The position numbers were made by a program, and so were the translations under genes. From a virus, in IMG/VR virus record IMGVR_UViG_3300009448_000012, positions 1 to 64,000 of that record: a stretch of DNA of 64,000 bases; one strand, given 5' to 3'. Of the stretch, positions 5,543-23,693 are shown piece by piece. Below the pieces are notes generated by a model. That model saw only the letters and a list, made by a program, of their open reading frames with translations, made no database searches and was not told the DNA's origin. How positions within the stretch are numbered: the stretch's first letter is position 1; every line of letters starts with the position of its first letter.

Positions 5543-7283
5543 GAAAATCGCCGTCGCGCCGGTGCATCCCTCGGCGGTTGGTCTGGAGCCGATCGCGGCG
5601 CCGATGATCCCGACGAACTGGCAAGGGGCGTTCGCCCGGCTGGTGGACAGCGTCACGATCGTCGTCACCGCGCAGGCGAAGAAGGTCGCGGACCTGACCC
5701 AAGCGCTCGCCGACGCGAACGGGCTGATCGCCGCGCTGACCAAGAAACAGGCGGATGATTACGCGCTGCTGGCGAAAGGGCTGGTTGGTCAGAACATCGC
5801 CGGCATTCGCGACGAAGCGAGCGAGATCCGCGCGGACCTGACCGACATCGCCGGCAAGGTCGAAGCGCTGATCAAGGGTCGCGCCGAGATCGTCGACAAC
5901 GTCCGCGCGACCGACAAGCGGATCGACGCCTTGCCGTCCGTGCATGAGACGGTCGCGAAGGTCGGCGAGATGGTCGCGGCCGGATACGAACATTCGATCA
6001 AGCTGATCACCGACATGACCGTCGAGAAGGTCACAGCGCTGGAGGCGGCCGCCGGCGCCGCGCGGGATATCGCCGAGGCGGTCCGCGACGAAGTCCGGAC
6101 GGTGGCGACCGGTCTCGGCGACCTGACCGAGACGCACACCGCGACGCGGCGCCAGCTCGACGCCCTTGCGTCCGACGTGAACGATATCGGCGAGGACCTT
6201 GGCGGCAAGGTGTCCGCGCTGACCAAGGGGCATTCCGACCTCACCGCGGCGAACTCGGAAAACGCCGCGGCGAATTCGAAGCTCGCCGCGGTCGTGACCG
6301 AGCACGTCGACCGGCTCGGCGCCAATCTCGGCACGCTCGAAGAACGGGTCGAGGACGCGGCGGCGAAGTTCGGCGACAAGGTGTCCGAACTGAAGGATCT
6401 GGTCGAGGACTACGCTTCGACGGCGAGCAGCGAAGACGCCGGGCTTGCGGACCAGCTCGGGAAGCTCGACGGTCATGTGACGGCCGCGCGTGAGGTCGCC
6501 GACGCCGCCCGCACGCGCGCGGCCGAAGCGATGAGCCATTGCAACGATCTTTCCGGCACGGTGAGCGCGATCATCAAGGCGCGGGCGGATGAGGCTGATC
6601 AATTCGCCGAGACGGTCGAGACGGTTGGGAACCAGGTTAAAACCATGGTCGACGACCTCGCCGCGCAATTCGGCGAAATGAGTCAGATGTCGGTCGACGA
6701 CGCCAAGCGGATCGAGCAGGTCGAGGAAACGGCGCGGACGATCGGCGCCGAGGTCCAGGGGCTCGCGAAGGTGATCGAAGCATGCCGCGACGCCGGCGCC
6801 GAGATCGCGACCGATGTGACGGACATGCTTCGCCGTGTGACCATCTCGCTTGGTCAAATGCCTTCCGGGTTCATGATCGACCAGGACGGCGAGCTTGTGC
6901 GGGTTGCGCAGTCGGGCGAGGTGACGAAGATCGGCAAGGTGGTGTCGCACGGCCGCGACGCACCGGAAATCGTTTCCGTGAAGATGGAAGGCGAGCGGTT
7001 GATTTTCGCTCGATCGGATCGGACTGAGATCGGATGCACGGTCGTTCGCGCGACCGTCGAGCCGGCGCCGGCGATCACCGGACCCGACGCGGTCGATCCG
7101 CTGACGATCGGCGCCCTGTCGAAGGACCCGGCATTGCTGGCGCGGCAGGTCGAACACATGGCCGAAATGCGGGCGGGTGGTAAAAAATATAAGGAAATAT
7201 CGGAGAAATTTGGTACTTCTGAAAAAACGGTCGCCAAGCTGATCAGGGGTTATCAGAATGCCCAAACTAAAAAAGACGCCTAA
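5532..7283 (+). CDS. Long coiled-coil head-module protein with C-terminal HTH-like motif
   Basis: Heptad Ala/Leu/Asp-rich body, IDQDGELV..GKVV motif, C-terminal KKYKEISEKFGTSEKTVAKLI. Confidence 0.8.
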   Translation: MAIKKIAVAPVHPSAVGLEPIAAPMIPTNWQGAFARLVDSVTIVVTAQAKKVADLTQALADANGLIAALTKKQADDYALLAKGLVGQNIAGIRDEASEIRADLTDIAGKVEALIKGRAEIVDNVRATDKRIDALPSVHETVAKVGEMVAAGYEHSIKLITDMTVEKVTALEAAAGAARDIAEAVRDEVRTVATGLGDLTETHTATRRQLDALASDVNDIGEDLGGKVSALTKGHSDLTAANSENAAANSKLAAVVTEHVDRLGANLGTLEERVEDAAAKFGDKVSELKDLVEDYASTASSEDAGLADQLGKLDGHVTAAREVADAARTRAAEAMSHCNDLSGTVSAIIKARADEADQFAETVETVGNQVKTMVDDLAAQFGEMSQMSVDDAKRIEQVEETARTIGAEVQGLAKVIEACRDAGAEIATDVTDMLRRVTISLGQMPSGFMIDQDGELVRVAQSGEVTKIGKVVSHGRDAPEIVSVKMEGERLIFARSDRTEIGCTVVRATVEPAPAITGPDAVDPLTIGALSKDPALLARQVEHMAEMRAGGKKYKEISEKFGTSEKTVAKLIRGYQNAQTKKDA

Positions 7284-8027: not shown

Positions 8028-9479
8028 ATGGCCAAACGGCTTCATGTCATGCCTGACTTTCCGGAAATCCCGGCGGGCCTGATCGTTTACGGGATCACGA
8101 ACGACGCGCAAGATCGTCTTGTCGCGCTTCGCGAGGAACAGGCGGACGCGCAGGCGGAAGCCGAAGCCATCGTCGCGGCCGCCGATGACGATAACCGCGA
8201 CCTGACCGACGACGAAGCGAAGACGGTCGCGGAACTCAAGAGCCAGATTGACCGGCTCGAAACGCAGATCACCGCCCGCGCGGCCGTGGTTCGCGCGCCG
8301 TCGCCCGGCCGCCAGACCCGGCCGGAGCCGGAGACCAATCGCGGCGCCCGTGGCAACCAGACGCCCGCACCGCGTCGCGGCAACACCGTGCCGGCCTCGC
8401 CGAAGAACCGCAACGATGAAGCCACCTTCGGCTTCGGCTCGTTCGGCCTGTTTGCGCAGACCGTCCGCGTCGCGCAGGTCGGCAAGGGTGCCGATGGGTC
8501 CGACGCTCGCGAGCGTCTGCACAATGCCACGACGACGTTCGGCAACGAAGGCACCGGCGGCGACGGCGGCTTCCTGGTCCCGCCCGATTTCCGGAACCAG
8601 ATCTGGACGAAGGTGCTCGGCGAAGAGTCCCTAGTGTCCCGCACCGAACAGCTCGTGACGTCCGGCAACGGCCTGACGATCCCGGCTGACGAGACGGCGC
8701 CTTGGGATACGTCCAGCGCCGGCGGCATCCAGGCTTATTGGGAAAGCGAAGGCGGCGTCAAGACCCCGTCCAAGCCCGCTTTCGAGGCCAAGAACGCCCG
8801 TCTGAACAAGCTGATCTGTCTGGTTCCCGTCACCGACGAACTGTTGGAAGACGCGCCCGGCCTGGAAAGCTGGCTTCGTGCGAAGGCGCCGGTCAAGATG
8901 ACCAGCAAGCTGAACACGGCGCTCATTCGCGGGACCGGCGTCGGTCAGCCGCTCGGCGTCCTGACCGCCGGTTCGCTGGTGACGATCTCGAAGGAGACGT
9001 CGCAGAACGCCGACAGCATCGTCGCGATGAACATCTCGAAGATGTGGAACCGGCTCTATGCGCCGTTGCGCCGCAACGCCGTGTGGCTGATCAACCAGGA
9101 CATCGAGTCTCAGCTCGACTTCCTCGCCTTCCCCGATGCGGCCGGCGGTCATCCCGTCCCGCTGTACATGCCGGCCGGCGGCCTGTCCGCATCGCCGTAC
9201 AGCACGCTGAAGGGTCGTCCGGTGATCCCGGTCGAGGCAACCAGCACGCTCGGCGACAAGGGTGACATCATCCTTACCGACCTGTCGCAGTACATGACCC
9301 TGACCAAGGGCCGCGACATCAAGACCGACGTCTCGATCCATCTCTATTTCGATCAGGACATCACCGCGTTCCGCTTTGTTCTCCGCATCACCGGTCAGCC
9401 GATGTGGAACAACGTCATCACGCCGCAGTTCGGTTCGATGACCCGTTCTTGGGCGGTCACGCTCGAAGATCGCACCTAG
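8028..9479 (+). CDS. Major capsid protein, HK97 fold with N-terminal delta domain
   Basis: DGGFLVPPDF, W..EG, VTDELLED, G.G.GQPLG, TLKGRPV; GAGGA RBS. Confidence 0.97.
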   Translation: MAKRLHVMPDFPEIPAGLIVYGITNDAQDRLVALREEQADAQAEAEAIVAAADDDNRDLTDDEAKTVAELKSQIDRLETQITARAAVVRAPSPGRQTRPEPETNRGARGNQTPAPRRGNTVPASPKNRNDEATFGFGSFGLFAQTVRVAQVGKGADGSDARERLHNATTTFGNEGTGGDGGFLVPPDFRNQIWTKVLGEESLVSRTEQLVTSGNGLTIPADETAPWDTSSAGGIQAYWESEGGVKTPSKPAFEAKNARLNKLICLVPVTDELLEDAPGLESWLRAKAPVKMTSKLNTALIRGTGVGQPLGVLTAGSLVTISKETSQNADSIVAMNISKMWNRLYAPLRRNAVWLINQDIESQLDFLAFPDAAGGHPVPLYMPAGGLSASPYSTLKGRPVIPVEATSTLGDKGDIILTDLSQYMTLTKGRDIKTDVSIHLYFDQDITAFRFVLRITGQPMWNNVITPQFGSMTRSWAVTLEDRT

Positions 9480-9555: not shown

Positions 9556-10062
9556 ATGGGCGTAAAGAACGAACACTTCCTGGAGTCGAACGACATTGTC
9601 TTCGGCTTCGGTGCTGCTGCACCGTCTAGCTCGACTGTTCAGCGCTTCAGCATGAAGAATTTCCAGCGCGCCAGCGTGCTGATTTTTCAGAACAAGGGCG
9701 CCGCGAACGGTTCGGCCATCGCGCTGAAGCAGGCGAAGGAAGTCGACGATAACCCGTCCGTCGAAAAGGTCCTGGAATTCACCAAGGCTTACCGCTCGCT
9801 TGCCGTTGGCTCGCAAGCGGCGCCCGTGAATAACTGGGCTGAATTCACTGTGGCGGCGAACACCTTCACGACCGACGCCACGAACGGCACGCGCGATGCC
9901 TACATGATCGACATCAAGGCCGAAGACCTCGATATCGATGGCGGCTTCGACGTGGTCGAGGTCGAAATCGGCAACGCCGCGTCGAACGTGCTCGCGGTCG
10001 TGATCCTGCTCCACGAAGCGCGCAACGCAGGCTTCCCGGTCGACAGCGGCATCGCCGACTAA
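9556..10062 (+). CDS. Putative head decoration/cement protein
   Basis: Directly follows the capsid gene, beta-rich, strong GAGGA RBS. Function inferred from position. Confidence 0.65.
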   Translation: MGVKNEHFLESNDIVFGFGAAAPSSSTVQRFSMKNFQRASVLIFQNKGAANGSAIALKQAKEVDDNPSVEKVLEFTKAYRSLAVGSQAAPVNNWAEFTVAANTFTTDATNGTRDAYMIDIKAEDLDIDGGFDVVEVEIGNAASNVLAVVILLHEARNAGFPVDSGIAD

Positions 10063-10131: not shown

Positions 10132-10159
10132 CCGGCTGGCGATCGTGCCGGCCTTTTCT
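10132..10159 (+). terminator. Putative intrinsic terminator
   Basis: CCGGC..GCCGG followed by CCTTTTCT. Confidence 0.4.
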
Positions 10160-10172
10160 GGTGGGTCATATC

Positions 10173-10565
10173 ATGCCGAAAATTAGGTTCATTGAGCCGG
10201 CGACGATCGAACATCACGATCGTCGGGAGACGATCAAGGTCGGGACGGTCATGGACGTGACCGAGGCCAGCGCCACGCGTTGGGAACGCCGTGGTAAGGT
10301 CGAGCGGATCGACGAGTATGTCGCGCCGCAGATGCCGTTCACGCCGCCGGCGCCCGCATCGGTCCAGCCGCCCGCGCCAGTCGCACCACCAGCACCACCA
10401 GCACCGCCCGCGCCGCCGGCTCCGGAGCCTGAAGCCGACACGGCCGCGACGCCGGCGCCCGTCGCACCACCAGCACCGCCCGCGCCGCCGGCGCCCGCAC
10501 CGAAGCCGCGCGGCCGCCCGTCCAACAAGCCGGCCGCCGAGGGCTCGGACCCTTTGGCCCAATAG
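10173..10565 (+). CDS. Small head-module protein with Pro/Ala-rich tail
   Basis: ~50 aa globular N-terminus followed by duplicated PAPVAPPAPPAPPAP repeats. Confidence 0.85.
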   Translation: MPKIRFIEPATIEHHDRRETIKVGTVMDVTEASATRWERRGKVERIDEYVAPQMPFTPPAPASVQPPAPVAPPAPPAPPAPPAPEPEADTAATPAPVAPPAPPAPPAPAPKPRGRPSNKPAAEGSDPLAQ

Positions 10566-11197
10566 GCAGCACCTTCCCGGACTGGCGAGGCGAAACGGTC
10601 GCGGTCGTCGCGGCCGGGCAATCTGCCGAAAGCATCATGACCGCGATCACGCCGGGCTCGTTCCGGGTGATCGCGGTCAATCGGTCTTACCAGCTAGTCC
10701 CATGGGCCGAATGCCTGTACGCGGCCGATGCCGGATTTTGGAAGCACTACAAGGCGACCGGCTTCAAGGGCTGGCGCTTCTGTGCTGACGAGACGATCAG
10801 ATACATCGACGCGAGCGTTCACGCGGTCAAGATTGCCCGCGATCCCAAAGATCGCAGGCTGACGGAAATGGTCGCCGGACCGATCGGGACGGTCGGGTTC
10901 GGTGGTAACAGCGGATATCAGGCCGTTAATCTCGCCGCGCAGTTTGGAGCGCGACGGATCTTGCTTGTCGGTTTCGATTATTGCGGGGCGCATTGGCACC
11001 CTGACCACCCGAAGACTTTGCGCAATCCCACGGGCGCGGAATTCAGGCGATGGGCGATGGACCTCGACCGGGCGGCGGGAACGCTGAAGTCATGGGGGAT
11101 CGAGGTCCTGAATCTGTCGCCGGTCAGTAAATTAAGGGCTTTTCCATATGCCGACAGCCGTCTGTTTGATTCGGGACAACGTCCATTATCGGCATGA
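10550..11197 (+). CDS. Maf/DUF115-like glycosyltransferase-like domain; first in-frame ATG is at 10637
   Basis: WRGETVAVVAAGQS, VIAVN, LYAAD..FW, GGNSGYQAVNLA..FGARRILLVGFD. The conserved first strand lies upstream of any start codon (see findings). Confidence 0.7.
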   Translation, partial: PFGPIGSTFPDWRGETVAVVAAGQSAESIMTAITPGSFRVIAVNRSYQLVPWAECLYAADAGFWKHYKATGFKGWRFCADETIRYIDASVHAVKIARDPKDRRLTEMVAGPIGTVGFGGNSGYQAVNLAAQFGARRILLVGFDYCGAHWHPDHPKTLRNPTGAEFRRWAMDLDRAAGTLKSWGIEVLNLSPVSKLRAFPYADSRLFDSGQRPLSA

Positions 11198-11936
11198 TGC
11201 CTTTATTCGCGGCCTTGCCGCGCTCGGGTACACCGTGCGGACGAAGCCGCTCCAGCGCATAGCCGCCGACGACGTCCTGGTGATCTGGAATCGGGGCGCG
11301 CAATTCCAGTTCGAGGCGACCCGCCACACCAAAGCCGGGTCGCCGATCATCGTCGCGGAAAACGGGTACACCGACGCCGTCGACGACCATGGGCATCAGT
11401 GGTTTTCGCTCGCGCTCGACCATCATAACGGCGTCGGGCGCTGGTGGATCGAGGACCAGCCGCGCTTCCCGTCCATGGGCCAAGCCGTGGCGCCGTGGCG
11501 GGCTGAAGGGTCCTTCATCCTGGTGTTGCCGCAACGCGGCATTGGGGCGCCCGGCGTGGCCATGCCGCAGTCTTGGCCGCGCCTGATCGCGCAACGGCTC
11601 GCCAAGGTCACGGCGCGGCCGGTGCGCATCCGCGCGCATCCTGGTCTCAAGTCCTTGGCTAAGCCGCTGGCGCCCGCGCTGGAGGGCTGTCACGCCGTCG
11701 TGACTTGGGGATCAGGCGCGGCGCTGAAAGCGATCATGCTCGGCGTTCCCGCCTTCCACGAACTTCCCGGATGGATCGGCGCGCCGGCCGCGCGCTTCGG
11801 CATCGACCAGGGCGTCGAAAACCCCTTCCTCGGCGATCGCGGTCCGATGCTCGAACGAATGGCATGGTCACAATGGCCGATCGCCGACATCGCCGCCGGG
11901 ACCGCCTTTCGCACCCTTCTGAAATGCAATCACTGA
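11148..11936 (+). CDS. Capsule-synthesis (KpsS/KpsC-like) GT-B glycosyltransferase, paralog 1
   Basis: ENGY, VRIRAHP, VVTWGSGAALKAIMLGVP, C-terminal AWSQW...I..G. Confidence 0.7.
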   Translation: MPTAVCLIRDNVHYRHDAFIRGLAALGYTVRTKPLQRIAADDVLVIWNRGAQFQFEATRHTKAGSPIIVAENGYTDAVDDHGHQWFSLALDHHNGVGRWWIEDQPRFPSMGQAVAPWRAEGSFILVLPQRGIGAPGVAMPQSWPRLIAQRLAKVTARPVRIRAHPGLKSLAKPLAPALEGCHAVVTWGSGAALKAIMLGVPAFHELPGWIGAPAARFGIDQGVENPFLGDRGPMLERMAWSQWPIADIAAGTAFRTLLKCNH

Positions 11937-11982
11937 TATTCGCCGCCGAACCCGTCCACAACCTACAATTGGGGCCCGAACT

Positions 11983-12819
11983 GTGAAAGTTCATTTATTC
12001 GCCGTATCCCGCCACGGCCGCGCCGGACACATCGCCGAGGCGATGCAAACCGGGCTGAAGCGCCACGGCATCGCCGCCGAGATCATCACCGACCAGCGAA
12101 CCGGGCGCGCCGTGCTCGGCGACGTCGCGATCGCGTATGGTTGGGTGCATGAACCCGTCTTCACCGCGTACCGGCACGCCGGCGCCCACTATGCTTATTT
12201 CGATATGGGCTATTTCAACCGGAAGCCGTCGAAGGACAAGGGCGGGTCCCGCGACGGTCATCACCGGCTCGCCGTGAACAGTTGGGACACCGCCGACACA
12301 ATGCGGACCCTGTGTCCATCCGACCGATGGGACGCGCTCGGGATCGAGGTCGCGCCCAATCGCGAGCAGCACGCCGGCGCGGTCCTGGTGTGCGGCATGT
12401 CCGAGAAGGCGGCCGGGACGCATGGGTTCCGGCCGGGTCAATGGGAAGCCGAGACCGTCGCGACCTTGCGCGCGGCGTTCCCGACGACCGAGATCGTCGA
12501 CCGACCTAAGCCCGCGAACCTGGACGCCGGCGAGCCGATCGCCGAGGTCCTGAAGCGGACGGCGATCGTCGTCAGCCACCATTCGAACGTCGCGGTCGAC
12601 GCCCTGGTCGCCGGCGTGCCGACCTATGCGCGAAAGGGCGTCGGCAAGCTGGTGTCGTGCTCGAACCCGGTGGACGCGGTCCGCATGATGGGGCCGATCG
12701 TCGCCGAGCCGATGCGCCGCCAGATCCTCGCCGACGTCGCATACGCGCAATGGTCGCCGCCGGAGATGCGCACCGGAGCGGCGTGGTCTCACATTCGGAG
12801 CCTGATCGATGCACAATGA
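11983..12819 (+). CDS. KpsS/KpsC-like glycosyltransferase, paralog 2
   Basis: DMGYF, DRPKP, VVSHHSNVAVDALVAGVP, AYAQWS..EM..G. Confidence 0.7.
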   Translation: MKVHLFAVSRHGRAGHIAEAMQTGLKRHGIAAEIITDQRTGRAVLGDVAIAYGWVHEPVFTAYRHAGAHYAYFDMGYFNRKPSKDKGGSRDGHHRLAVNSWDTADTMRTLCPSDRWDALGIEVAPNREQHAGAVLVCGMSEKAAGTHGFRPGQWEAETVATLRAAFPTTEIVDRPKPANLDAGEPIAEVLKRTAIVVSHHSNVAVDALVAGVPTYARKGVGKLVSCSNPVDAVRMMGPIVAEPMRRQILADVAYAQWSPPEMRTGAAWSHIRSLIDAQ

Positions 12820-13135
12820 CAATCCAGCGCCGCCGGCGGCCGGAGCGCCCGCGCGCGGGTACGCGATGGCCTTCACGCCCACGCGGCTCCAGCGGTTCTT
12901 GCGCGCCCTTGGGTTCGATCGCGGCGCGGTCCCGGACTTGCCGGTCGACGTAACCGACCGGTTACCGTGTTGGGCGACAACCGAGACGCATATCCGGTTC
13001 GACTTCCTCGACCGGGTTCGCCTGCTCGTGACCGGCCGGCTGTTCGTGAAGGCGCTCCACGCGATGGAGCACGATCCCGGCGAGGTGGTCACGCGGTCGG
13101 CGGTTTCCGTGAGGTGGACCGATGCTCGTCCATAA
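12809..13135 (+). CDS. Hypothetical protein
   Basis: Overlaps both neighbours within the operon. Confidence 0.5.
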   Translation: MHNDNPAPPAAGAPARGYAMAFTPTRLQRFLRALGFDRGAVPDLPVDVTDRLPCWATTETHIRFDFLDRVRLLVTGRLFVKALHAMEHDPGEVVTRSAVSVRWTDARP

Positions 13136-13358
13136 TCGGTCGCGCTCGCCGGCGCGGGTCCAGCTCGACCGCGACTTCATCGACGGCAAGTTCGACGACG
13201 ACTTGTCGCGCTACACCAGCCTGTCGCGCGACCTGGACGCGCTCGAAGGCGCGAAGGACTTCATCGACGCCCGTCGTGACCGCCGGCGCGGTTATTGGGC
13301 GATCGGCGGGCTTGCCGTCTGCATTCTAATCGCTCTCAAGATTTTGGTGACGCTATGA
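13122..13358 (+). CDS. Small protein with C-terminal transmembrane helix
   Basis: YWAIGGLAVCILIALKILVTL; stop overlaps the next ATG. Confidence 0.6.
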   Translation: MLVHNRSRSPARVQLDRDFIDGKFDDDLSRYTSLSRDLDALEGAKDFIDARRDRRRGYWAIGGLAVCILIALKILVTL

Positions 13359-14221
13359 AATTCGCCTTCTATGTCTCGACCGGCAAAAGCCGGGAAGCGC
13401 CGCTTCGCGACGCCTGGACCGCCGGCGCGGCCGCGCTCGGCGACGAACTGGTGGTGACGTCGAACGATGTCGCGGCGCCGATCGACGCCGACGTCGCGGT
13501 GATGGTCGGACTCAAGTCCATCGACCTGCGCGAAGCGTGCAAGGCGGCGGGTCAGCGCGTGCTGATCTTCGACAAGGGGTATGACCGGAAAGAGGATTGG
13601 TGGCGCGTCTCGATCGATGCGCACCAGCCGACCGACTATCTGACCAAGCTGGTCCGCCCGCGCGCGCGCATGGACAAATGCGGGTGGAACCCGAAACCGT
13701 GGCGCGCGCCGACGCCTGACGGGCATGTGATCATCGCCGGCGGCGGCCGCAAATACTATGACGCCCACGATCTTCCGGACCCGGCGGACTACATCGCCGG
13801 CGTCGTGGCGGACCTGCGCGCGGCCGGCTGCTCGCGCCGGATCTGGTATCGCCCCAAGCCGTCGATGGCGGACGTTGCGCCGGTTGCCGACACGACGCTG
13901 TCGCGGCACAAGTCGATTTATGATCTGCTGAAGGGGGCTCACGTCCTGGTCACGTTCGGCTCGAACGCGTGCTTCGAAGCGGTGCTGGCCGGAATACCGT
14001 CGATCGTCACCGGCGACGCGGTGATGCGCCCGATCTCGTCCACACGGCTTGACGAGATCGAGGCGCCTCACTTAGCAGACGACGGGGGGCGTCTTTCGCT
14101 GCTGTCGAGCTTAGCATACTGCCAATTCCGGTTAAGCGAAATCTCGCAAGGTTGGGGCGTTCATGAAATTAAAGCGCAATTACAAGAAATTGTACGAAAC
14201 GCACCACACGAACAACCCTAA
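13355..14221 (+). CDS. KpsS/KpsC-like glycosyltransferase, paralog 3
   Basis: DKGY, WYRPKP, LVTFGSNACFEAVLAGIP, LAYCQF..EI..G. Confidence 0.7.
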   Translation: MKFAFYVSTGKSREAPLRDAWTAGAAALGDELVVTSNDVAAPIDADVAVMVGLKSIDLREACKAAGQRVLIFDKGYDRKEDWWRVSIDAHQPTDYLTKLVRPRARMDKCGWNPKPWRAPTPDGHVIIAGGGRKYYDAHDLPDPADYIAGVVADLRAAGCSRRIWYRPKPSMADVAPVADTTLSRHKSIYDLLKGAHVLVTFGSNACFEAVLAGIPSIVTGDAVMRPISSTRLDEIEAPHLADDGGRLSLLSSLAYCQFRLSEISQGWGVHEIKAQLQEIVRNAPHEQP

Positions 14222-14690
14222 ACACTTCTCCGGAAACATTGGCGAGCTTCAGGTTCTCGAAATAAAGAGCCTTGTCGATTGGGCTCAACCTGACCGTTTG
14301 TTAGATTACGGGTCGGGAAAGGGTTTCCAATACCTGAAGCAACGTCGGCATGAACAATGGGGCGGCCTGCTGCCCCATTGCTACGACCCCGGCGTGATCC
14401 AGATCAGCACCAAGCCGCCGGGCGTTTTCGGCGGCGTCATTTGCACGGACGTTCTAGAGCACATCGACGCCGACGACCTCGACATGATCCTTGCTGACAT
14501 CATGTCGTCGATTGCCAAGACCGGGCGCGCCTTCGCCTATTTCCACATCAGCACGCGCCCGGCCGGGAAGACGTTCGAGGACGGCGAGAACGTCCATCTG
14601 ACCGTCGAGCCGCCGGCATGGTGGGAACAGAAGCTTCAGCGGTTCGTCACGCGGTCAGATTTCAGGATAAGAGCGACCTATGGGGATTAG
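14163..14690 (+). CDS. Class I SAM-dependent methyltransferase
   Basis: LLDYGSGKG, YDP, ICTDVLEHI, HLTV...WW. Confidence 0.85.
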   Translation: MKLKRNYKKLYETHHTNNPKHFSGNIGELQVLEIKSLVDWAQPDRLLDYGSGKGFQYLKQRRHEQWGGLLPHCYDPGVIQISTKPPGVFGGVICTDVLEHIDADDLDMILADIMSSIAKTGRAFAYFHISTRPAGKTFEDGENVHLTVEPPAWWEQKLQRFVTRSDFRIRATYGD

Positions 14691-15492
14691 ACTGGTCATG
14701 ACCTGTCACGCCGAGGGCTGGCGCGACTATGGTCGGAAGATGGTTCAGACCTTCGTCGAGCACTGGCCGGCGGCCGCGACGCTCAACGTTTACGCGGAAG
14801 GCTTTTCGGTTGACGTCCAGGCGCCGAACGTTTTCGAACGCCGGCTTCCCGCTTGGCATGACGCCTGGAAAGCGCGACACGCCGAGAACCCGGACGCACA
14901 CGGGACCGACCCGCGCCGGTTCGGCGCGACCGATAAGCGCAAGGGCAAGGGATACAGCTACAGGCGCGATTGCGTGCGGTTCTCGCACAAGGTCGCGGCG
15001 CTGACCGACACCGCGCTGGAGTGCCGCGCGGCCGCGCCCGGCCTGCTGATCATGGTCGACGCCGACGTCATCACGCACGCCGGCGTGACGCTCGAATGGT
15101 TGAACCAGATCTTCCCGGACCCGGCGAGCTATCTGGCATGGCTCGACCGCGCGTCGTGGTATCCGGAATGCGGGTTCGTGATCTTCCGCGAAACGCATCC
15201 GGGTCACGACTGGTTCATGCGCGCGTTCCGATCCACCTATGAGACCGACGCCGTCTTCACCCTGTCCGAGACGCACGACAGCTTTGTTCTTCAGCAACTC
15301 GTCACCGACGCGGTCCGGTGCGGCAAGATCCCGGCGCCGTTCGGCCTGTCGAGCAAGGTCGGCAAGCGGTCGTCTCACCCCTTCGTCTATTCCCGCCTTG
15401 CCGAACGCCTTGACCACGCCAAGGGCAAGTTCAAGGTGGAGGGGCGGACGCCGAAAGGATACGTCCGCCGCACCGAGGCGCATTGGCTTTAG
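14680..15492 (+). CDS. GT-A fold glycosyltransferase
   Basis: RFSHKV, DxD motif (MVDAD), ECGF, HDSFV, DHAKG. Confidence 0.75.
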   Translation: MGIRLVMTCHAEGWRDYGRKMVQTFVEHWPAAATLNVYAEGFSVDVQAPNVFERRLPAWHDAWKARHAENPDAHGTDPRRFGATDKRKGKGYSYRRDCVRFSHKVAALTDTALECRAAAPGLLIMVDADVITHAGVTLEWLNQIFPDPASYLAWLDRASWYPECGFVIFRETHPGHDWFMRAFRSTYETDAVFTLSETHDSFVLQQLVTDAVRCGKIPAPFGLSSKVGKRSSHPFVYSRLAERLDHAKGKFKVEGRTPKGYVRRTEAHWL

Positions 15493-16022
15493 ATCTTGAC
15501 GAAGACGTGTTTCCGCCGGTTTCCGGACTTGCCTAATCGGTCGACCAGTCGGAAACCGGCGTCGACGAAGTCCTTCGCCTGGATCTCGTTAAACGGTTCG
15601 TCGTCGGGTCGGAAATCGGTGATGATTAATCCGCCCGATCTCAGCGATCGTTGCGCAAGGGGGATGTATTCCGACACCGGGTAATGCGTCCCCCAAGACT
15701 TGAACGACGTGATCAGGTCGACCGGTATGGTCAGGTCAGGGTTCTGAACGAACGCTTCGACAGGACAGTCGAGATGGATGTCAGCAAATGCTTTCGCGTC
15801 GGCGACGTTGTTCCATGCCAAGGCGCCTTCGCGATAGTCGTGAAAGATTTCACCGGAGCCGTCGCCGTCCATGAGAGCAAGATATTTGACCCGGCAATAT
15901 CGCGCGATGACAACGCTATGCACGCCGGATGCGCAACCGATGTCGAGCATCGAACCCGGTTTGTATTCGTCCAGGATCGGGCGGATGTGCTCCAGTAGCT
16001 TTTCGGAAAGTCTGGTGTTCAT
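15489..16022 (-). CDS. SAM-dependent methyltransferase, antisense to the late operon
   Basis: MLDIGCASG, LMDGD, DLITSFKSWGTHYP; GAGGA RBS before ATG 16022. Confidence 0.8.
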   Translation of the reverse strand: MNTRLSEKLLEHIRPILDEYKPGSMLDIGCASGVHSVVIARYCRVKYLALMDGDGSGEIFHDYREGALAWNNVADAKAFADIHLDCPVEAFVQNPDLTIPVDLITSFKSWGTHYPVSEYIPLAQRSLRSGGLIITDFRPDDEPFNEIQAKDFVDAGFRLVDRLGKSGNRRKHVFVKI

Positions 16023-16058
16023 GTGTCCTCGGTTTATGTGAAAGGGCAGGGTCGCAAA

Positions 16059-16670
16059 ATGAAATACCCCAAGACGGACGGCAAGGCGAAGCGGATCATC
16101 CGGAGCGGTGTCCCTTACCAGGGCGACCGGCTGGCGGCCGCCCTGCCCTTCCTGCGCGGGCGAAGGCGCGCGCTGGACATCGGGGCGCATATCGGCCTTT
16201 GGGCCGTCCAGCTCGCGCCGGTGTTCGCTAAGGTGGCATGCTTCGAGCCGCACCGCGCGAGCGCGGCCGCGCTGTGCGAGAACGTCGCGGACCTGGAGAA
16301 CGTCGAGACTTGGGAAGCGGCGGTGGGCGACGTCCTCGGCGTGCGCGGGCTGGTGCAAGACGGGCTCGCCGCGCATCTCGACGACGACGGTCCGATGAAA
16401 GTCTCGGTCGTGCGGCTCGACGACATTTGCGAGCGGTACGGTTGGGACGACGTCGACTTCATCAAGATGGACGTCGAAGGGTTCGAATATTTCGTGCTGC
16501 TCGGCGGCGAAAAGATGATCCGCGCGCAACGGCCGGTGATCGTGCTGGAGCAAAAGCACGACGGCCGGTATGGTGTGGACAAGCTCGCCGCGATATCGCT
16601 GCTTCAGCGATGGGGCGCAACCCTGGAATGGCGAATGAAACACGACTATTGCTTGAGGTGGAAGCGATGA
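16059..16670 (+). CDS. FkbM-family methyltransferase
   Basis: ALDIGAHIGLW, CFEP, RLDD, DFIKMDVEGFE, RPVIVLE. Confidence 0.9.
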   Translation: MKYPKTDGKAKRIIRSGVPYQGDRLAAALPFLRGRRRALDIGAHIGLWAVQLAPVFAKVACFEPHRASAAALCENVADLENVETWEAAVGDVLGVRGLVQDGLAAHLDDDGPMKVSVVRLDDICERYGWDDVDFIKMDVEGFEYFVLLGGEKMIRAQRPVIVLEQKHDGRYGVDKLAAISLLQRWGATLEWRMKHDYCLRWKR

Positions 16671-16927
16671 AGCATGCGCGCGCGGATTATGACCGCATCC
16701 AAGATCCCGCCGGTCTGATCCCTGATGACGAACCGGTTTTCCTGATCCGTGGTCAGGACCTCGCCGCGCCCGACACCCTTCGCGCCTACGCGATGAACGC
16801 TCACGTCGCCGGCGCGGCGAACGACATCGTGATGGCGACGCTCGATCAGGCGCGCGCCATGGAACAGTGGCAACGCGAGCGCGCGCAAGACGCCGGACCT
16901 CGCCGTCGAAAGCGGGACCCTGTGACC
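16667..16927 (+). CDS. Small phage domain (DEPVFLIRGQD), read in frame into the downstream FkbM gene
   Basis: ATGA start; no in-frame stop before the ATG at 16928. Confidence 0.6.
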
Positions 16928-17620
16928 ATGACCGGACAAACCATCATTGCCGGAATCTCGGTCCCGCTCGGCGACACGCACTTCGGCGACCATCTCGCGC
17001 AAAGCCCGCTGTTCGCCGGCAAGGGGACTTACCAGTTCGCCAAGATCGAGAAGGCGCTGGCGGTCTCACCACACCGGCGCGGTGTCGCGCTCGATGTCGG
17101 CGGGCACATCGGCCTATGGTCGCGCGTGCTCGCACATCACTTCAAGACGGTGATCGCGCTGGAGCCGCTTCCCGCGCTGATCCCGCATTTCCGGTTCAAC
17201 ACCGACGACTGTCCGAACGTCCGCCTCTATGAGGTCGCGGCCGGCGCCGAGAACGACGACATCATGATCGTCACGGTCGCCAGTAATTCCGGGAACGGGC
17301 ACGTCGCGCCGCCGGGCGCGGTCGCCGATGTCAATGTTCACCGCACGCAATCGGTCCGCCTGGATTCGCTCAACCTTCATAACGTCGACCTGATCAAGAT
17401 CGACGTCGAAGGTTGGGAATTGCGGGTCGTCGAAGGCGCGGTGAAGACCATCATGCGGGACAAACCCGTCATGGTGGTCGAGCAGAAACCGAACAACGCC
17501 GAGCGGTACGGCGTGAAGCAGCGCGCGGCCGTCGACCTGCTCGCGTCGTGGGGATATGTCGTCGCGTGGGAAAAGGCGGGCGACGTGTGCATGACGCATC
17601 CGGGCGCGGTGGCGGCGTAA
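16928..17620 (+). CDS. FkbM-family methyltransferase
   Basis: ALDVGGHIGLW, LEP, RLDSL, DLIKIDVEGWE, KPVMVVE. Confidence 0.9.
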   Translation: MTGQTIIAGISVPLGDTHFGDHLAQSPLFAGKGTYQFAKIEKALAVSPHRRGVALDVGGHIGLWSRVLAHHFKTVIALEPLPALIPHFRFNTDDCPNVRLYEVAAGAENDDIMIVTVASNSGNGHVAPPGAVADVNVHRTQSVRLDSLNLHNVDLIKIDVEGWELRVVEGAVKTIMRDKPVMVVEQKPNNAERYGVKQRAAVDLLASWGYVVAWEKAGDVCMTHPGAVAA

Positions 17621-18360
17621 TGCGCGAGTCGATCTTCATCGGGTTCGATCGCCGGCATGCCGTCGCCTTGGCGGTGTGCCGGCACAGCATCGAACGGCGC
17701 CTGTCGCGCAAGATTCCGATCAGGGGGATCGCGCTCGACGAAGTCCGCGCCATGGGCCTTTACAGGCGACCGACCGAGACGCGCCCGACCGAAGACGGCG
17801 AGCATGTCCAGCTATGGGACACGATCAGCGAATTCGGCATGTCGACGGAATTCGCGATCAGCCGGTTCCTGACCCCGCATCTCGCCGGCGGCGGGCTCGC
17901 GCTGTTCATGGATTGCGACATGGCGGCCAGAGTGGACCTTGCGCGGCTGTTCGACCTGTACGACCCGCGATATGCAGTCATGTGCGTGAAGCACCGCCAC
18001 GAGCCGCCGGAAGGCGTCAAGATGGACGGGCAAGCGCAAGTCCGGTACACGCGGAAAAACTGGTCGTCGGTCATGCTGTTCAACTGCGATCATCCCGCGA
18101 ACGCCGGGCTGACCGTGGGGCTGATCAACAGCGTCGCCGGCCGCGACCTTCACCGGTTTTGCTGGTTGCCTGACGACCTGATCGGCGAACTGCATCCGCG
18201 TTGGAACCATCTGGTCGGGCATACCGTGTTGCACGAACCGCCTTCCGACACGAACCCGGCGGTGATCCATTGGACGGACGGTTATCCGCTGCTGAAGGGG
18301 TACGAAAGCGCCGATTTCGCCGATGTCTTTCACGCCGAACTGACGAGTTGGGCGAAATAG
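17620..18360 (+). CDS. GT8/CDI-like nucleotide-diphospho-sugar transferase
   Basis: IFIGFD, STEFAISRFL.P, FMDCD (DxD), RKNWSSVMLFNC.HP, WNHLVG, IHWTDG.P. Confidence 0.85.
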   Translation: MRESIFIGFDRRHAVALAVCRHSIERRLSRKIPIRGIALDEVRAMGLYRRPTETRPTEDGEHVQLWDTISEFGMSTEFAISRFLTPHLAGGGLALFMDCDMAARVDLARLFDLYDPRYAVMCVKHRHEPPEGVKMDGQAQVRYTRKNWSSVMLFNCDHPANAGLTVGLINSVAGRDLHRFCWLPDDLIGELHPRWNHLVGHTVLHEPPSDTNPAVIHWTDGYPLLKGYESADFADVFHAELTSWAK

Positions 18361-18494: not shown

Positions 18495-19175
18495 GTGCTC
18501 GAAGTGATTGATCCGCCGGCTGATCGGATTGTCAGCCTCGCCGAGATGAAGCAGCATTTGCGCGTCGATCACACCGACGACGATCAGGTGATCGACGCCT
18601 ATATGCTCGCCGCCGAGGGTCGGATTGACGGGCCTTGGGGGATCACCGGCCGGGCGTTCCGGCCGCAAACCTACCGCTATTCGATCCCGAACTTTCTCAG
18701 CTCGATTCCGCTTCCGTTCCCGCCGCTGATCGAGGTCGTCAGCCTCGACTATCTCGACGACCAGGGCAATCCGCAAAACTTTGCCGAGGCGGGTCAGTGG
18801 CGCGCGATCGGCGTCGGCAATGAGCAGGGCGGCGCGATCGTCCCGCTGTCCGGCGTGACATGGCCTTCCGTGCTGGCCACCAGCGACCCCGATAAGGTCC
18901 GTGTGACCTTCACGGCCGGATACTATCGCGCGGGCTCACCGGAGAACGACGCGGTCCCGCCGACGATCAAGGCGGCGGTCAAGCTGATGGTCGGTGACTG
19001 GTATGAGCACCGCACGTCGTCGGTAATCGGCACGGTCGCGGGACCGACGCCGCACGGCGTCGAAATGCTGATCGCGCCCTTCAAGATTTACGGCGCATAC
19101 TTCGCCTATGATCCGGCGGCCGCCGGCGCGGTCTATTCCGAGGCATGGGAAGGCTTCGGTTGTTCAGCCTGCTAG
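18495..19175 (+). CDS. Head-tail connector (gp6/phiE125 gp8-like)
   Basis: VSLAEMKQHLRVD..DDD, FTAGY, VPPTIKAAVKLMVGDWYEHR. Confidence 0.92.
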   Translation: MLEVIDPPADRIVSLAEMKQHLRVDHTDDDQVIDAYMLAAEGRIDGPWGITGRAFRPQTYRYSIPNFLSSIPLPFPPLIEVVSLDYLDDQGNPQNFAEAGQWRAIGVGNEQGGAIVPLSGVTWPSVLATSDPDKVRVTFTAGYYRAGSPENDAVPPTIKAAVKLMVGDWYEHRTSSVIGTVAGPTPHGVEMLIAPFKIYGAYFAYDPAAAGAVYSEAWEGFGCSAC

Positions 19176-20816: not shown

Positions 20817-21263
20817 ATGGGCGCTTTCGATGACGTGACCTTTCAGTGGGCAGGGGTCAGCTATACCATCCCTGCCAACAAAATGATGGGTGCGATCGCC
20901 CGCATCGAGGACCATGTGACCATGCCGGAGCTTCAGCGTTTCGGCGAGCGGGGGGCCGTTCCGCTGTCCCGCCTCGCCGGCGCCTTCGCTTCCGTCCTTC
21001 GATATGCCGGCGCCAATGTGGTGCATGAAGACGTTTACGCGGCGATGTTTGCCGGCGCGGAAAAACAAATGGAAGTCGCCGAAGCCGTCTCGCTCTTAAT
21101 GGCCATGATGGTTCCGGCGGGGTCCCGCGACAAGATCCTGAAGGTCGCCGAGGAAGCCAAAGCCGCCGGAGCAGTGCCGCCGGGAAACCCCGTCCCGGCC
21201 GCGACCGCTTCGTCGAAGAAGCTTACAAAATCGCGGTCGGGCAAGCGTGGGTCTCGCCTGTAG
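20817..21263 (+). CDS. Tail assembly chaperone (G)
   Basis: Lies between tail tube and tape measure; carries slippery G GGA AAC at 21182-21188. Confidence 0.85.
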   Translation: MGAFDDVTFQWAGVSYTIPANKMMGAIARIEDHVTMPELQRFGERGAVPLSRLAGAFASVLRYAGANVVHEDVYAAMFAGAEKQMEVAEAVSLLMAMMVPAGSRDKILKVAEEAKAAGAVPPGNPVPAATASSKKLTKSRSGKRGSRL

Positions 21264-21415
21264 AATTCTGGCAAATGACGCCTCAAGAATTTCACTGGCT
21301 GTGCGAGGCGAAAATGCCGAAGAAGGTCTTCAAGGGCAAAAAGCGCTCGATGACCGAAGACGAAGCCGACGCAATTTACCGCAAAGCCTACGGACCACCA
21401 CCAGGGGAAGATTGA
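21182..21415 (+). CDS. Tail assembly chaperone -1 frameshift extension (GT)
   Basis: The -1 frame from GGGAAAC is open to TGA 21413-21415 and encodes ...SPVEFWQMTPQEF..., a typical GT motif. Confidence 0.85.
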   Translation, partial: GKPRPGRDRFVEEAYKIAVGQAWVSPVEFWQMTPQEFHWLCEAKMPKKVFKGKKRSMTEDEADAIYRKAYGPPPGED

Positions 21416-21419
21416 TCAA

Positions 21420-23693
21420 ATGGCAACGGCAGAAATCGGGGCTTTGCGCGTTCTGCTGTCCATCAACGCTGGTGAGTTCGCGCGCGGGATACAGCGCGCG
21501 AGCAAGGACGCGGACGGCTTCGGCGCGAGCATGTCCAAGCTTTCCGACAAAATGGAAGCGGCGAGCTACGAATTCAATTCCGGCGTCATGGCGGCACAGC
21601 GCTTTGCGTCGGTCGTGACCAGCATCATCGGCGTAAGCCGAGAATTCGGGTCCGGCATGTCGGCGGTGTCGACCCTGGTCGACACCAACACCGAAAGCAT
21701 GAAGCAGATGTCGGAAGCCGTCCTGAAGATCGGACGGAATACGCCTGTCGCCCTGTCCGACCTGACGACCGGTCTCTATGACCTGCGATCCGCCGGCACG
21801 TCGGCGGAAGACGCTATGGACCGCCTGGAGCGGTCCGCGCAACTCGGCGTTGCGGGCCTGGGCTCCACGAAGGAAGCCGTCGATCTGGTCACGTCCTCGA
21901 TCAACGCTTTCGGCCTGAAGGGGCGGGAAGCCGACGACGTCTATAACAACATCTTCAAGACGATCCAGGCGGGCAAGACCACGATCAGCGGGCTTGCGCA
22001 GGGCTTCGGCGCCGTCGCCTCGACCGTGTCGGCGGCGGGCGTGAGCCTGAAGGAATATCTCGCCTCGATCGCGGCGCTGACCGTCACCGGCTTGCCGGCG
22101 GCCGTGGCACATACGCAGATCCGCGCGGCGATCGCCGGCATGACGCGCGAGAGCGAGCTTGCGACGAAGGTGCTCGACGCGATGGGCGTCAAGACCTTCA
22201 AAGAACTGATCGACAAGTCGGGCGGCATGGTCAACGCCTTCAAGAACATCACGACCGCGCTCGGCGGGAACGACGCCGCCATGATCAAGCTGTTCGGCTC
22301 GGTCGAGGCTTACAACGCCGTGTTGTCGCTGACCGGGAAGCAGAACGACGCCTTCACGCAGAACATGGCCAAGATGAACGACGGCCTCGACGCGGTGACG
22401 GAAGGCTTCGATAAGCGCAACGAAGGCATGGGCGCCGCGATCGACAAGATGCGCAATGCGGTCCAGGAATTAGGGATCGCGCTCGGCGACGCGCTGGCGC
22501 CGACGATCAAAGCCGTCTCGGCGTTCGTGATCGACCTGACGACCGCGTTCAAGTCGCTCGACCCTGAAGTCCAGGCCATGATCACGCGGGTCGCACTGAT
22601 CGCGGCCGTGATCGCGCCGGCGGTGACGGCGATCGCCTTCTTCGTGAACGCGCTCGGCTCGATCGTCGGCGTCGTGGCCACGGTCAGCGCGGCGCTATGG
22701 GGGCTGGTCATGGTGGGCGGGCCGATCGCGCTGTTCGTCGTCACGGCGAGCGCGGCCGTGACGGCTTGGCAGATTTTCCAAACCGAGATCATCGCGATTT
22801 TCGACGCGGTCGCGAGCGCGATCGGGCGCAAGGTGACTGAGATGGTCGAATGGATGACCAAGCTCGGGACCTATGTGAGCGAGGTCTTTTCCAAGATTTG
22901 GAACGGCGAATTCGAGGAAGCCATGACCCGCATGGGTGAAGGCATCGCCGGCGGGATGATCGTCGCCAGTGACGCGACGGACCAGCTCGGGACGTCGATC
23001 AAGAACGTCGACCTGCTCGCGCAGGAACAGGCGAAGAAGGCGTTCGAGTACAAGGGGCCGGTGATCGCCGCGACCGACGCCGAGGCGAACGCGGTGCGCA
23101 ATCGGAACAGCGCCTATCGGGAAGGGCTCGCGCTGTTCAACGAGACGCTGGACCCGATGGAAAAGCTCATTTTCAAGCAGATGCAGATTCACGCGCTGAT
23201 GACACAGGGCGCGATCGACGCCACCACCTACGGCCGCGCCATGGCGGCCGCGTCGGTCTACAGCGCCAAGAACATGGACGCGCTCGCGTCGTCGGTCGGC
23301 TCGAACTTGGCGACCATCTTCGGCGACAGTAAAGCGGTCGCGATCGCGACCGCCCTGATCAACACCTATCAGGGCATCACGAAAGCGCTCGCGTCCTACC
23401 CGCCTCCGATTTCAACCGCGATGGCGGCGATCCAGGCGACCGCCGGCTTCGCGCAGGTGGCCAAGATCCGGTCGCAGACGTCCAAGGGCGGCGGGGGCGG
23501 TGGTGGGGGCGGTGGCGGCGGCGAGGCGGCTGCAGCGGCTGCTGTGCCTGCTGCAAGCGTCAATCAAACGCTGATGGTCCAGGGCGTGAACCCCGGACAG
23601 ATGTTCAGCGGCGAGAGCATGCGCGGGCTCGCCGAACAAATGCTGGAATACCAGCGCAACGGCGGCAAGGTCATACTCGATCGGGCGGGTTAA
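21420..23693 (+). CDS. Tape measure protein (TP901-family core)
   Basis: AEIGALRV N-terminus, GLYDLRSAG, TMP core, hydrophobic middle region. Confidence 0.93.
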   Translation: MATAEIGALRVLLSINAGEFARGIQRASKDADGFGASMSKLSDKMEAASYEFNSGVMAAQRFASVVTSIIGVSREFGSGMSAVSTLVDTNTESMKQMSEAVLKIGRNTPVALSDLTTGLYDLRSAGTSAEDAMDRLERSAQLGVAGLGSTKEAVDLVTSSINAFGLKGREADDVYNNIFKTIQAGKTTISGLAQGFGAVASTVSAAGVSLKEYLASIAALTVTGLPAAVAHTQIRAAIAGMTRESELATKVLDAMGVKTFKELIDKSGGMVNAFKNITTALGGNDAAMIKLFGSVEAYNAVLSLTGKQNDAFTQNMAKMNDGLDAVTEGFDKRNEGMGAAIDKMRNAVQELGIALGDALAPTIKAVSAFVIDLTTAFKSLDPEVQAMITRVALIAAVIAPAVTAIAFFVNALGSIVGVVATVSAALWGLVMVGGPIALFVVTASAAVTAWQIFQTEIIAIFDAVASAIGRKVTEMVEWMTKLGTYVSEVFSKIWNGEFEEAMTRMGEGIAGGMIVASDATDQLGTSIKNVDLLAQEQAKKAFEYKGPVIAATDAEANAVRNRNSAYREGLALFNETLDPMEKLIFKQMQIHALMTQGAIDATTYGRAMAAASVYSAKNMDALASSVGSNLATIFGDSKAVAIATALINTYQGITKALASYPPPISTAMAAIQATAGFAQVAKIRSQTSKGGGGGGGGGGGGEAAAAAAVPAASVNQTLMVQGVNPGQMFSGESMRGLAEQMLEYQRNGGKVILDRAG

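Follow-up and report, generated by a model that had tools for sequence, protein, structure and literature searches.

Why would a phage carry six transferase-like and four methyltransferase genes in the middle of its head operon? The question is raised by the window analyzed here, the first 64 kb (64,000 nucleotides, nt) of the 74,557-bp IMG/VR virus record IMGVR_UViG_3300009448_000012, a linear sequence from an uncultured phage. The record is ~91% complete (CheckV) and has a guanine-cytosine (GC) content of 63%. Groundwater metagenomes contain the same DNA. An island of 8.2 kb (10173-18360) lies between the capsid block, i.e. the capsid gene and a 168-amino acid (aa) open reading frame (ORF), and the head-tail adaptor gene Ad1. 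It begins with gene A and holds the transferase-like genes B, C, D, F, H and L together with the methyltransferase genes G, I, J and K. There is about an even chance that these genes form a late-expressed, soluble, cytoplasmic glycan-assembly module, which decorates the virus particle, most likely its head, using host CMP-Kdo, the cytidine monophosphate-activated form of Kdo (3-deoxy-D-manno-oct-2-ulosonic acid).

An initial annotation of this DNA had listed a Pro-rich protein, a Maf/DUF115-like transferase, three KpsS/KpsC-like GT-B paralogs, two GT-A enzymes and four methyltransferases between the capsid genes and the head-tail connector (GT, glycosyltransferase). All of these gene types are present according to Pfam, PHROG, folds and third-position GC, the last of which backs every reading frame of the island. 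Types and coordinates stand, with three amendments: gene I lies on the minus strand, two ORFs between D and F had been omitted, and B lacks a start codon.

The left arm, transcribed from the plus strand, is a standard siphovirus late operon (Pfam, PHROG). The gene order ahead of the island is large terminase, portal, a 583-aa coiled-coil protein, ClpP-type protease and HK97-type major capsid protein. Behind it follow the Ad1 adaptor, Hc1 head closure, neck, tail terminator, major tail protein, tape measure and fibre. Four features flank the island directly:

8028..9479, plus strand: HK97-type major capsid protein, scaffold-like in its N-terminal region (Pfam Phage_capsid, E 6e-39).
9556..10062, plus strand: 168-aa ORF following the capsid gene, perhaps for a head accessory protein (62% identity in the related locus L003).
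10134..10163, plus strand: terminator-like GC hairpin and T-run just 5' of gene A (consensus scan).
18495..19175, plus strand: head-tail adaptor Ad1 (Pfam Phage_connect_1, PHROGs).

The nearest named relatives of the capsid protein occur in Ralstonia and Bradyrhizobium phages. A Bradyrhizobium prophage with a related capsid protein keeps the same gene order without the island, which therefore is an insertion at the capsid/adaptor site. Relatives at 60-75% identity hold it at the same position; among 50,697 phage records, megablast showed no match to the island. The 168-aa ORF had no Pfam or PHROG match. The hairpin between it and A has an 8-pair stem with 6 GC pairs, followed by TTTTCTGG. With some read-through, it would fit an expression of the enzymes below the level of the capsid protein.

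The connection to the head is made by the first two genes of the island and the site between them:

10173..10565, plus strand: gene A, a small Pro-rich protein, zero-frame gene of the putative recoding site (sequence).
10550..10556, plus strand: slippery heptamer C_CCT_TTG, in phase, proposed site of a -1 frameshift from A to B (sequence).
~10550..11197, plus strand: gene B, a DUF115/MptE-like putative ulosonic-acid transferase (phrog_4603, E 2e-34).

A begins with a domain of ~50 aa and further contains a linker rich in Pro and Ala as well as an RGRP motif. The conserved N-terminus of B, TFPDWRGETV..AGQSA, comprises the first strand and the glycine loop and lies 5' of the sole ATG at 10637. 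B homologues start few residues before the TFPDWRGETV motif. In this phage the motif is read in the -1 frame of A, 10 codons past the in-phase C_CCT_TTG, and the 50 open codons that precede the conserved Trp include no ATG, GTG or TTG. Judged by its sequence, B seems to be made only through a -1 ribosomal frameshift from A.

The same arrangement was found in other phages. The survey comprised 85 distinct B N-termini from viral loci, for which a start was sought within 30 codons upstream. A start codon was missing in 38 of them. At least 21 of these 38 carry an in-phase XXXYYYZ heptamer, and 10 more an in-phase C_CCT_AC/AT. CCCTTTG is in phase in 9 distinct B loci, and 12 or more others have a related XXXYYYZ site; the other heptamers at B junctions are CCCTTTC, CCCTTTA, CCCAAAG/A, GGGAAAC and AAAAAAG. 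Among B genes with their own start, a heptamer was present in 1/47, a false positive inside an adaptor gene. In the loci L050 and L142, both with an in-phase CCCTTTG, the zero-frame ORF runs 36 to 80 codons beyond the heptamer, so that a start overlapping the stop is impossible there. A sequencing error as cause of the frame change was rejected, as dozens of assemblies show the arrangement independently. The C_CCN site is missing in some start-less B genes (L164, L200, L222 and L014), L164 showing an in-phase T_TTT; the family may thus also use other ways of recoding or initiation. A second groundwater sample yielded small contigs with a break at 10552, which neither confirm nor contradict the sequence of the slip site.

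The ORFs upstream of start-less B genes belong to one small-protein family, a ~45-aa domain with a low-complexity tail. A aligns with this family in multiple alignments, on which the link rests: jackhmmer from the N-domain of A did not reach the distant A-like ORFs, and BLASTP of the A-like ORF of L050 against A gave no match. Pfam produced sub-threshold matches to DUF7210 and DUF7302, in relatives of A only, and a PDB search with the A-domain profile had no match. A complex prediction with two copies of the capsid domain and the N-domain of A scored 0.00, which is evidence neither way. The PRGRP (AT-hook-like) motif of A follows the Pro-rich linker at 10497-10520, and its GRP is conserved in L001 and L003. 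Several distant A-like ORFs have RGR-type motifs in their zero-frame tails too, where the overlapping B frame may force them.

Programmed -1 frameshifts are known from phage morphogenesis genes, namely the T7 capsid proteins 10A/10B and the lambda tail proteins G/GT. The A/B junction shares with them an in-phase XXXYYYZ site close to the 3' end of a structural-module gene and, presumably, a minor product extended at its C-terminus. It differs in that the extension would be an enzyme domain, that the commonest site is CCC-UUU-N, and that no downstream structure is evident.

B is also tied to the capsid gene by its position. In 24 of 25 records with a start-less B, an HK97 capsid gene (PF05065) lies 0.1-1.3 kb upstream of the A-like ORF. 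The wider context was counted in 80 B-family viral loci. The Ad1 adaptor is adjacent in 35/80. B is the only transferase or methyltransferase within 3 kb in 37/80 and is accompanied by further module genes in 43/80. Since capsid gene, A-like ORF and adaptor accompany B, often as the sole module gene, the minimal conserved unit is, by gene order, a capsid gene, a small protein, a putatively frameshifted DUF115 gene and an adaptor, and this phage would carry a much expanded version. An unrelated podovirus has an FkbM gene and an L-like glycosyltransferase just 3' of its capsid gene. The case for the virion as target is strengthened, because a conserved putative frameshift ties B to the capsid gene as well as to the small protein encoded after it.

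The family assignment of B follows from phrog_4603, which is annotated as alpha-2,3-sialyltransferase, and from structural neighbors in the Atlas (TM score 0.68-0.83), which are DUF115, MptE-like and WaaZ_KDO_III clusters. The match to Pfam MptE-like (PF01973) is weak with 16.8 bits against a cut-off of 34.6; PF01973 is carried by 7/96 B homologues. A PDB sequence search with B gave nothing meaningful. B has the DUF115 core in common with the superfamily of Maf, WaaZ and DUF115/MptE-like proteins. It differs from Maf in its length of ~210 aa, in the lack of flanking domains and in a Pfam score below cut-off. B and its homologues (200-233 aa) consist of the core domain alone and do not have the Maf architecture, in which N- and C-terminal domains flank DUF115.

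B is followed by three transferase genes of one family:

11148..11936, plus strand: gene C, a KpsC-like reduced GT-B paralogue with the H-P motif kept (paralogy, motif columns; 76% identical in L001).
11983..12819, plus strand: gene D, a KpsC-like GT-B paralogue in which K-P replaces H-P (paralogy, profile, motif columns).
13355..14221, plus strand: gene F, a KpsC-like GT-B paralogue, modelled (predicted local distance difference test, pLDDT, 95.8 from a 62-sequence alignment).

C, D and F are paralogues with a mutual identity of 24-26% (E 4e-5 to 4e-13). The model of F adopts the reduced GT-B fold of retaining beta-Kdo transferases, with KpsC, WbbB and KrkA as best solved matches. Against KpsC, Foldseek gave E 2e-9 and Z was 13.2-13.8 over ~240 residues; Z was 13.0-13.6 for WbbB, 11.1-11.4 for KrkA, and 10 or less for other GT-B enzymes. 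A profile of the C/D/F family found KpsC as first PDB match (E 6e-4); a profile of the three sequences alone matched no PDB sequence. KpsC/KpsS (GT107), WbbB (GT99) and KrkA match F over nearly its whole length, and the family conserves an Arg, a Ser and a proline-containing motif at the HP position as in KpsC-type transferases. The proteins differ from these by an identity of 12-16%, a shorter length (260-290 aa) and a single module.

Invariant residues of the C/D/F family are R105, R166, S203, Q257 and E262 (F numbering). Of 62 members, 57 retain the proline of the HP motif; the preceding residue is His in C and 19/62 members and Lys in D, F and 42/62. In a profile alignment, not a structural one, the column of the KpsC nucleophile D160 holds G, A, E or R (Glu in D, Gly in C, Arg in F). 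None of the three proteins matched PF05159 (Capsule_synth) at E<=1, and one of 62 family members did so with E 0.004. DUF6716 was touched below threshold by 27/62. Because the Capsule_synth match is missing and the nucleophile position is not conserved, membership in the KpsC/KpsS family proper is not supported, and C, D and F resemble KpsC at the level of the fold. The claim of three KpsS/KpsC-like paralogs survives for paralogy and, in the modelled F, for the KpsC/WbbB-like fold. The family has 4,447 cluster representatives at E<=1e-3.

The module is completed by two GT-A enzymes and four S-adenosylmethionine (SAM) methyltransferases:

14163..14690, plus strand: gene G, class I SAM methyltransferase (phrog_24759, E 4e-25; Pfam Methyltransf_23, E 3e-4, below cut-off).
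14680..15492, plus strand: gene H, GT-A glycosyltransferase, GT8/GT6-like (model, Foldseek, invariant columns).
15489..16022, minus strand: gene I, class I SAM methyltransferase (Pfam Methyltransf_23, E 3e-4).
16059..16670, plus strand: gene J, FkbM-family methyltransferase (Pfam Methyltransf_21, 64.4 bits against a cut-off of 22.7).
16667..17620, plus strand: gene K, FkbM-family methyltransferase with an additional N-terminal domain of ~85 aa (Pfam Methyltransf_21, 57.9 bits against a cut-off of 22.7).
17620..18360, plus strand: gene L, GT-A-like nucleotide-diphospho-sugar transferase with a DCD motif (phrog_28018, E 1e-48).

The model of H (pLDDT 96.6) shows a GT-A fold most like the retaining enzymes of GT8 and GT6. 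Foldseek matches were LARGE1, XXYLT1, glycogenin and alpha-3-galactosyltransferase (alpha-3-GalT) with E 4e-8 to 1e-6. D127 and D129 of the DxD motif are invariant in 44 sequences. H had no Pfam match, Glyco_transf_8 included, and a PDB sequence search with its profile gave nothing meaningful. Compared with transferases annotated in phages of Caulobacter, Pelagibacter, Synechococcus and Stenotrophomonas, L shows 34-38% identity. Its match to Pfam GT8 is weak (E 0.056, 13.4 bits, below the cut-off of 24.3), and a PDB sequence search was without meaningful result. Both GT-A assignments of the initial annotation were upheld, H by its fold and invariant DxD, L by phrog_28018 and its annotated relatives. 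Both ORFs modelled have GT folds, F that of GT-B and H that of GT-A.

Two FkbM and two other SAM methyltransferases had likewise been named correctly. J and K exceed the curated cut-off of FkbM (PF05050); G and I, both under Pfam cut-offs, are recognized by their motif I, and G by PHROG in addition. J homologues align from Met13, an earlier GTG being located at 16023. The N-terminal domain of K (16667-16930) is a separate ORF in another frame in L001 (6990-7193) and fused in-frame here; it has no assigned family. The stop of gene I overlaps that of H (TTAG), and its start is 36 nt from the likely start of J. No promoter was predicted for this minus-strand gene. Its best relative, with 51% identity, lies in L001 on the plus strand, downstream of the adaptor (10275-10739), so that cassettes of methyltransferase genes seem to change place and orientation from one of these phages to another. 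No island enzyme has a transmembrane segment. The net charge is basic for B, C, D and H. An NCBIfam search of the island proteins gave nothing useful.

The genes which commonly supply or export such glycans were sought in the whole 74,557-bp record. It contains no CMP-sugar synthetase, no KdsA and no KdsB. No ORF has four or more hydrophobic segments, hence there is no polytopic membrane protein. Neither a thymidylate-synthase-like gene (PF00303) nor a C5 DNA methylase (PF00145) was found, with matching controls; a search for Tet_JBP (PF12851) had no match, its control also matching nowhere. The statement that the window has no gene for sugar-nucleotide synthesis, export or base hydroxymethylation could thereby be extended to the full record, the Tet_JBP search being without a working control. 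Since supply genes are absent from this genome, the phage would rely on host CMP-Kdo, host nucleotide sugars and host SAM.

From these data we infer a pathway with its acceptor, its donors, the order of its steps and a docking of A to the capsid. Transcription would pass the hairpin after the capsid genes at a reduced level. Ribosomes translating A would slip back one base at C_CCU_UUG, yielding a fusion of A, linker and B, which would be the sole route by which B gains its Rossmann N-terminus. The A domain may then carry the DUF115 transferase to the target, where B would start the glycan. The three KpsC-like GT-B paralogues would add ulosonic acid, probably Kdo from host CMP-Kdo, and the two GT-A enzymes H and L could attach hexose-type sugars. 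Finally, the methyltransferases would O-methylate the product. A late, cytoplasmic and exporter-free pathway using host donors, as initially suggested, fits the data; the terms "capsule-like", "glycan shield" and "host-surface mimic" remain speculation.

The island families are, judged by their recurrence, a conserved phage module that is new here. No paper in the searched literature describes the module, the DUF115 frameshift or the link to the capsid gene. The B family has at least 572 viral loci and the GT8-like H family at least 579 IMG/VR loci, of which 80 were fetched. In these 80, H is nearly always accompanied by KpsC-like, L-like GT-A, FkbM and G-type methyltransferase genes, and often by B. 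Contigs bearing the module range from ~40-kb genomes to 330-360 kb, some of them proviruses. More distant phages keep it on either side of the adaptor (L008, L017, L024, L026, L050 and L142). Named carriers of L-like genes are the pelagiphage Mosig, the cyanophage S-SCSM2R and Caulobacter giant phages. Mosig has H-like and KpsC-like genes in addition; S-SCSM2R has neither at E 1e-3. Full modules occur in bacterial genomes in prophage-like contexts of Inquilinus, Mesorhizobium and Burkholderiales, and L142 is a prophage of the cultured strain Inquilinus sp. CA228. Overall, the module ranges over phages and prophages of Alpha-, Beta- and Gammaproteobacteria, pelagiphages and cyanophages.

Donor genes adjoin the module in some phages. 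In L011 (2654-4574), KdsB and KdsA, the genes of CMP-Kdo synthesis, are located directly 5' of KpsC-like paralogues. S-SCSM2R carries KdsB and KdsA two genes from its L-like glycosyltransferase. In L077 (15320-18996), a large aquatic phage, genes for a cytidylyltransferase/mannose-6-P isomerase fusion, a SAM synthetase and a radical-SAM-like protein come after the module, and RecA-like and helicase genes surround it. These linkages to KdsA/KdsB, a cytidylyltransferase and a SAM synthetase support Kdo-type donors and heavy methylation.

Solitary H homologues with 30-38% identity, unaccompanied by other module genes, exist on chromosomes of, among others, Inquilinus, Variovorax and Defluviicoccus (L093-L159, e.g. 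L123 9986-10834). The orphan homologue of Inquilinus limosus DSM 16000 has transporters and a xanthine-dehydrogenase-type operon as neighbors, which give no functional clue.

Several observations weigh against a decoration of the virion. No acceptor has been identified. Each enzyme family of the island has members in lipopolysaccharide (LPS) core synthesis too. With the nucleophile position of KpsC not conserved in C, D and F, Kdo transfer is not assured. Methyltransferase I is antisense to the operon. Large aquatic phages (L077, Mosig, S-SCSM2R) hold the module among replication and metabolic genes, away from the head genes. Some of these points are shared by the main rival, a host envelope remodelling, which is a serious alternative although we consider it less likely. 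Here, the enzymes, working at the cytoplasmic face of the inner membrane, would attach Kdo, hexoses and methyl groups to the lipid A-core or to some other lipid-linked acceptor in the Gram-negative host. The host would export the product, and the altered cell surface would exclude other phages or prevent progeny from sticking to debris. The closest characterized relatives indeed act on glycolipids, KpsC on Kdo linked to lyso-phosphatidylglycerol (lyso-PG) and WbbB on O-antigen termini. Further relatives are clusters carrying the WaaZ Kdo-III transferase family for B and GT8 enzymes of the LPS core for H. Nearly all homologues come from phages or genomes of diderm bacteria, the location apart from structural genes in large aquatic phages agrees with a role at the envelope, and a basic net charge, as in B, C, D and H, suits a contact with membranes or lipids. 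Published views of related cyanophage glycosyltransferase clusters favor a modification of the host surface (PMC7824862, PMC12801897). However, envelope remodelling leaves unexplained why B is tied to the capsid gene in 24/25 records and fused by a putative frameshift to a small post-capsid protein. Expression with the late operon leaves little time for export, none of the enzymes has a membrane anchor, and an independent promoter of the lysogeny type is lacking.

The remaining objections concern the frameshift itself. The A domain has 32 longer relatives, none of which is an in-frame fusion of A and B. In a calculation of nested pairing, the 84 nt that follow the slip site fold at -30.8 kcal/mol (z -0.25 against shuffles), which gives no sign of a stable structure that could stimulate slippage. 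An ATA overlaps the stop of A (ATAG) and could start B by reinitiation instead. The overlap of ATA and stop is repeated in L001 and L003 (ATAA, ATAG), and in L014 a CTG overlaps TGA. It is accordingly conceivable, at a rather low probability, that no frameshift takes place: B would start at ATA by termination-reinitiation, or be a decaying gene, and the island would be cargo without link to the head. The contig break at exactly 10552 in the sole independent sample is in line with this. Yet the zero-frame ORFs of L050 and L142 outrun the same in-phase CCCTTTG, heptamers are strongly enriched among start-less B genes, and TTT, a rare codon at this GC content, nevertheless recurs at the junction.

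It is highly improbable that the transferases glycosylate and the methyltransferases modify a hydroxylated base of the phage DNA for evasion of restriction: phage GT-A and GT-B enzymes do put diverse glycans, including a Kdo-like sugar acid, on 5-hydroxymethylcytosine (5hmC) (bioRxiv 10.1101/2023.12.21.572611), and protein A has an AT-hook-like RGRP motif, but the ~91% complete genome contains no thymidylate-synthase-like hydroxymethylase or C5 methylase (the Tet_JBP search being uninformative), F resembles Kdo transferases and not T4 beta-GT, the island is located in the head operon instead of beside replication genes, and six transferases with four methyltransferases would be unprecedented for base modification.

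Virion glycosylation as proposed for the island can be compared with three described systems. To our knowledge, phage-encoded virion glycosylation has been documented so far only in actinophages, with few transferases. In mycobacteriophages, a glycosylation of the virion by glycosyltransferases encoded beside capsid genes is established according to Freeman et al. 2023 as cited in PMC12619734. For Che8, Corndog and Myrna, the accounts cited agree with the island in glycosyltransferases located in the structural operon by the capsid gene and in a cytoplasmic, exporter-free process using host donors (PMC12619734, PMC12801897). The differences are the diderm hosts, the families involved (DUF115, KpsC-like GT-B, GT8-like GT-A and FkbM), the larger set of six transferases and four methyltransferases, and the putative production of the first enzyme via frameshift. 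In the chlorovirus PBCV-1, methylated N-linked glycans on the major capsid protein, formed by A064R and other enzymes, have been shown experimentally. The likeness is a virus-encoded cytoplasmic multi-enzyme pathway, in which glycosyltransferase and methyltransferase activities are paired, while the eukaryotic giant virus differs by unrelated sequences and N-linkage. Glycosyltransferase clusters of cyanophages and jumbo phages share L-like, H-like and KpsC-like families with FkbM, sugar-nucleotide genes and KdsA/KdsB (PMC7824862, PMC12801897). They differ by their location outside the structural module and by their own donor-synthesis genes, and their role in LPS or capsule modification is an interpretation.

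Two further ORFs lie between D and F:

12809..13135, plus strand: 108-aa ORF, specific to this phage (high third-position GC).
13122..13358, plus strand: 78-aa ORF, specific to this phage (absent from L001 and L002).

No family was found for the 108-aa ORF, which is absent from L001 and L002 as well. The 78-aa ORF encodes basic residues followed by a C-terminal hydrophobic helix, giving it a tail-anchored look. Outside the island, the 583-aa coiled-coil protein between portal and prohead protease (5532-7283) ends in a helix-turn-helix (HTH_28, Sigma70_r4_2); its position and domain mix are unusual for a head gene. Two overlapping ORFs 5' of the tape measure gene (20817-21618) occupy the usual position of the tail assembly chaperone pair. 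This pair normally has a -1 frameshift of its own.

A more general proposal is tentative, and we hold it as possible rather than probable. Phages of Gram-negative bacteria would share a widespread capsid-tethered glycosylation machine, in which a programmed -1 frameshift at CCC-UUU-N fuses a small capsid-docking protein, whose gene directly follows that of the major capsid protein, to a DUF115 transferase and so brings the first enzyme of the pathway to the head during assembly. From host CMP-Kdo, an O-methylated glycan coat with Kdo would next be made by KpsC-like, GT8-like and FkbM enzymes. If so, the phage presented here carries one of the most elaborate versions. A Kdo-based methylated coat would bear on phage stability, on recognition by immune systems and grazers, and on host-range assays. 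The "LPS genes" of marine phages would have to be reinterpreted, and an enzyme-delivering frameshift would join the list of phage recoding events.

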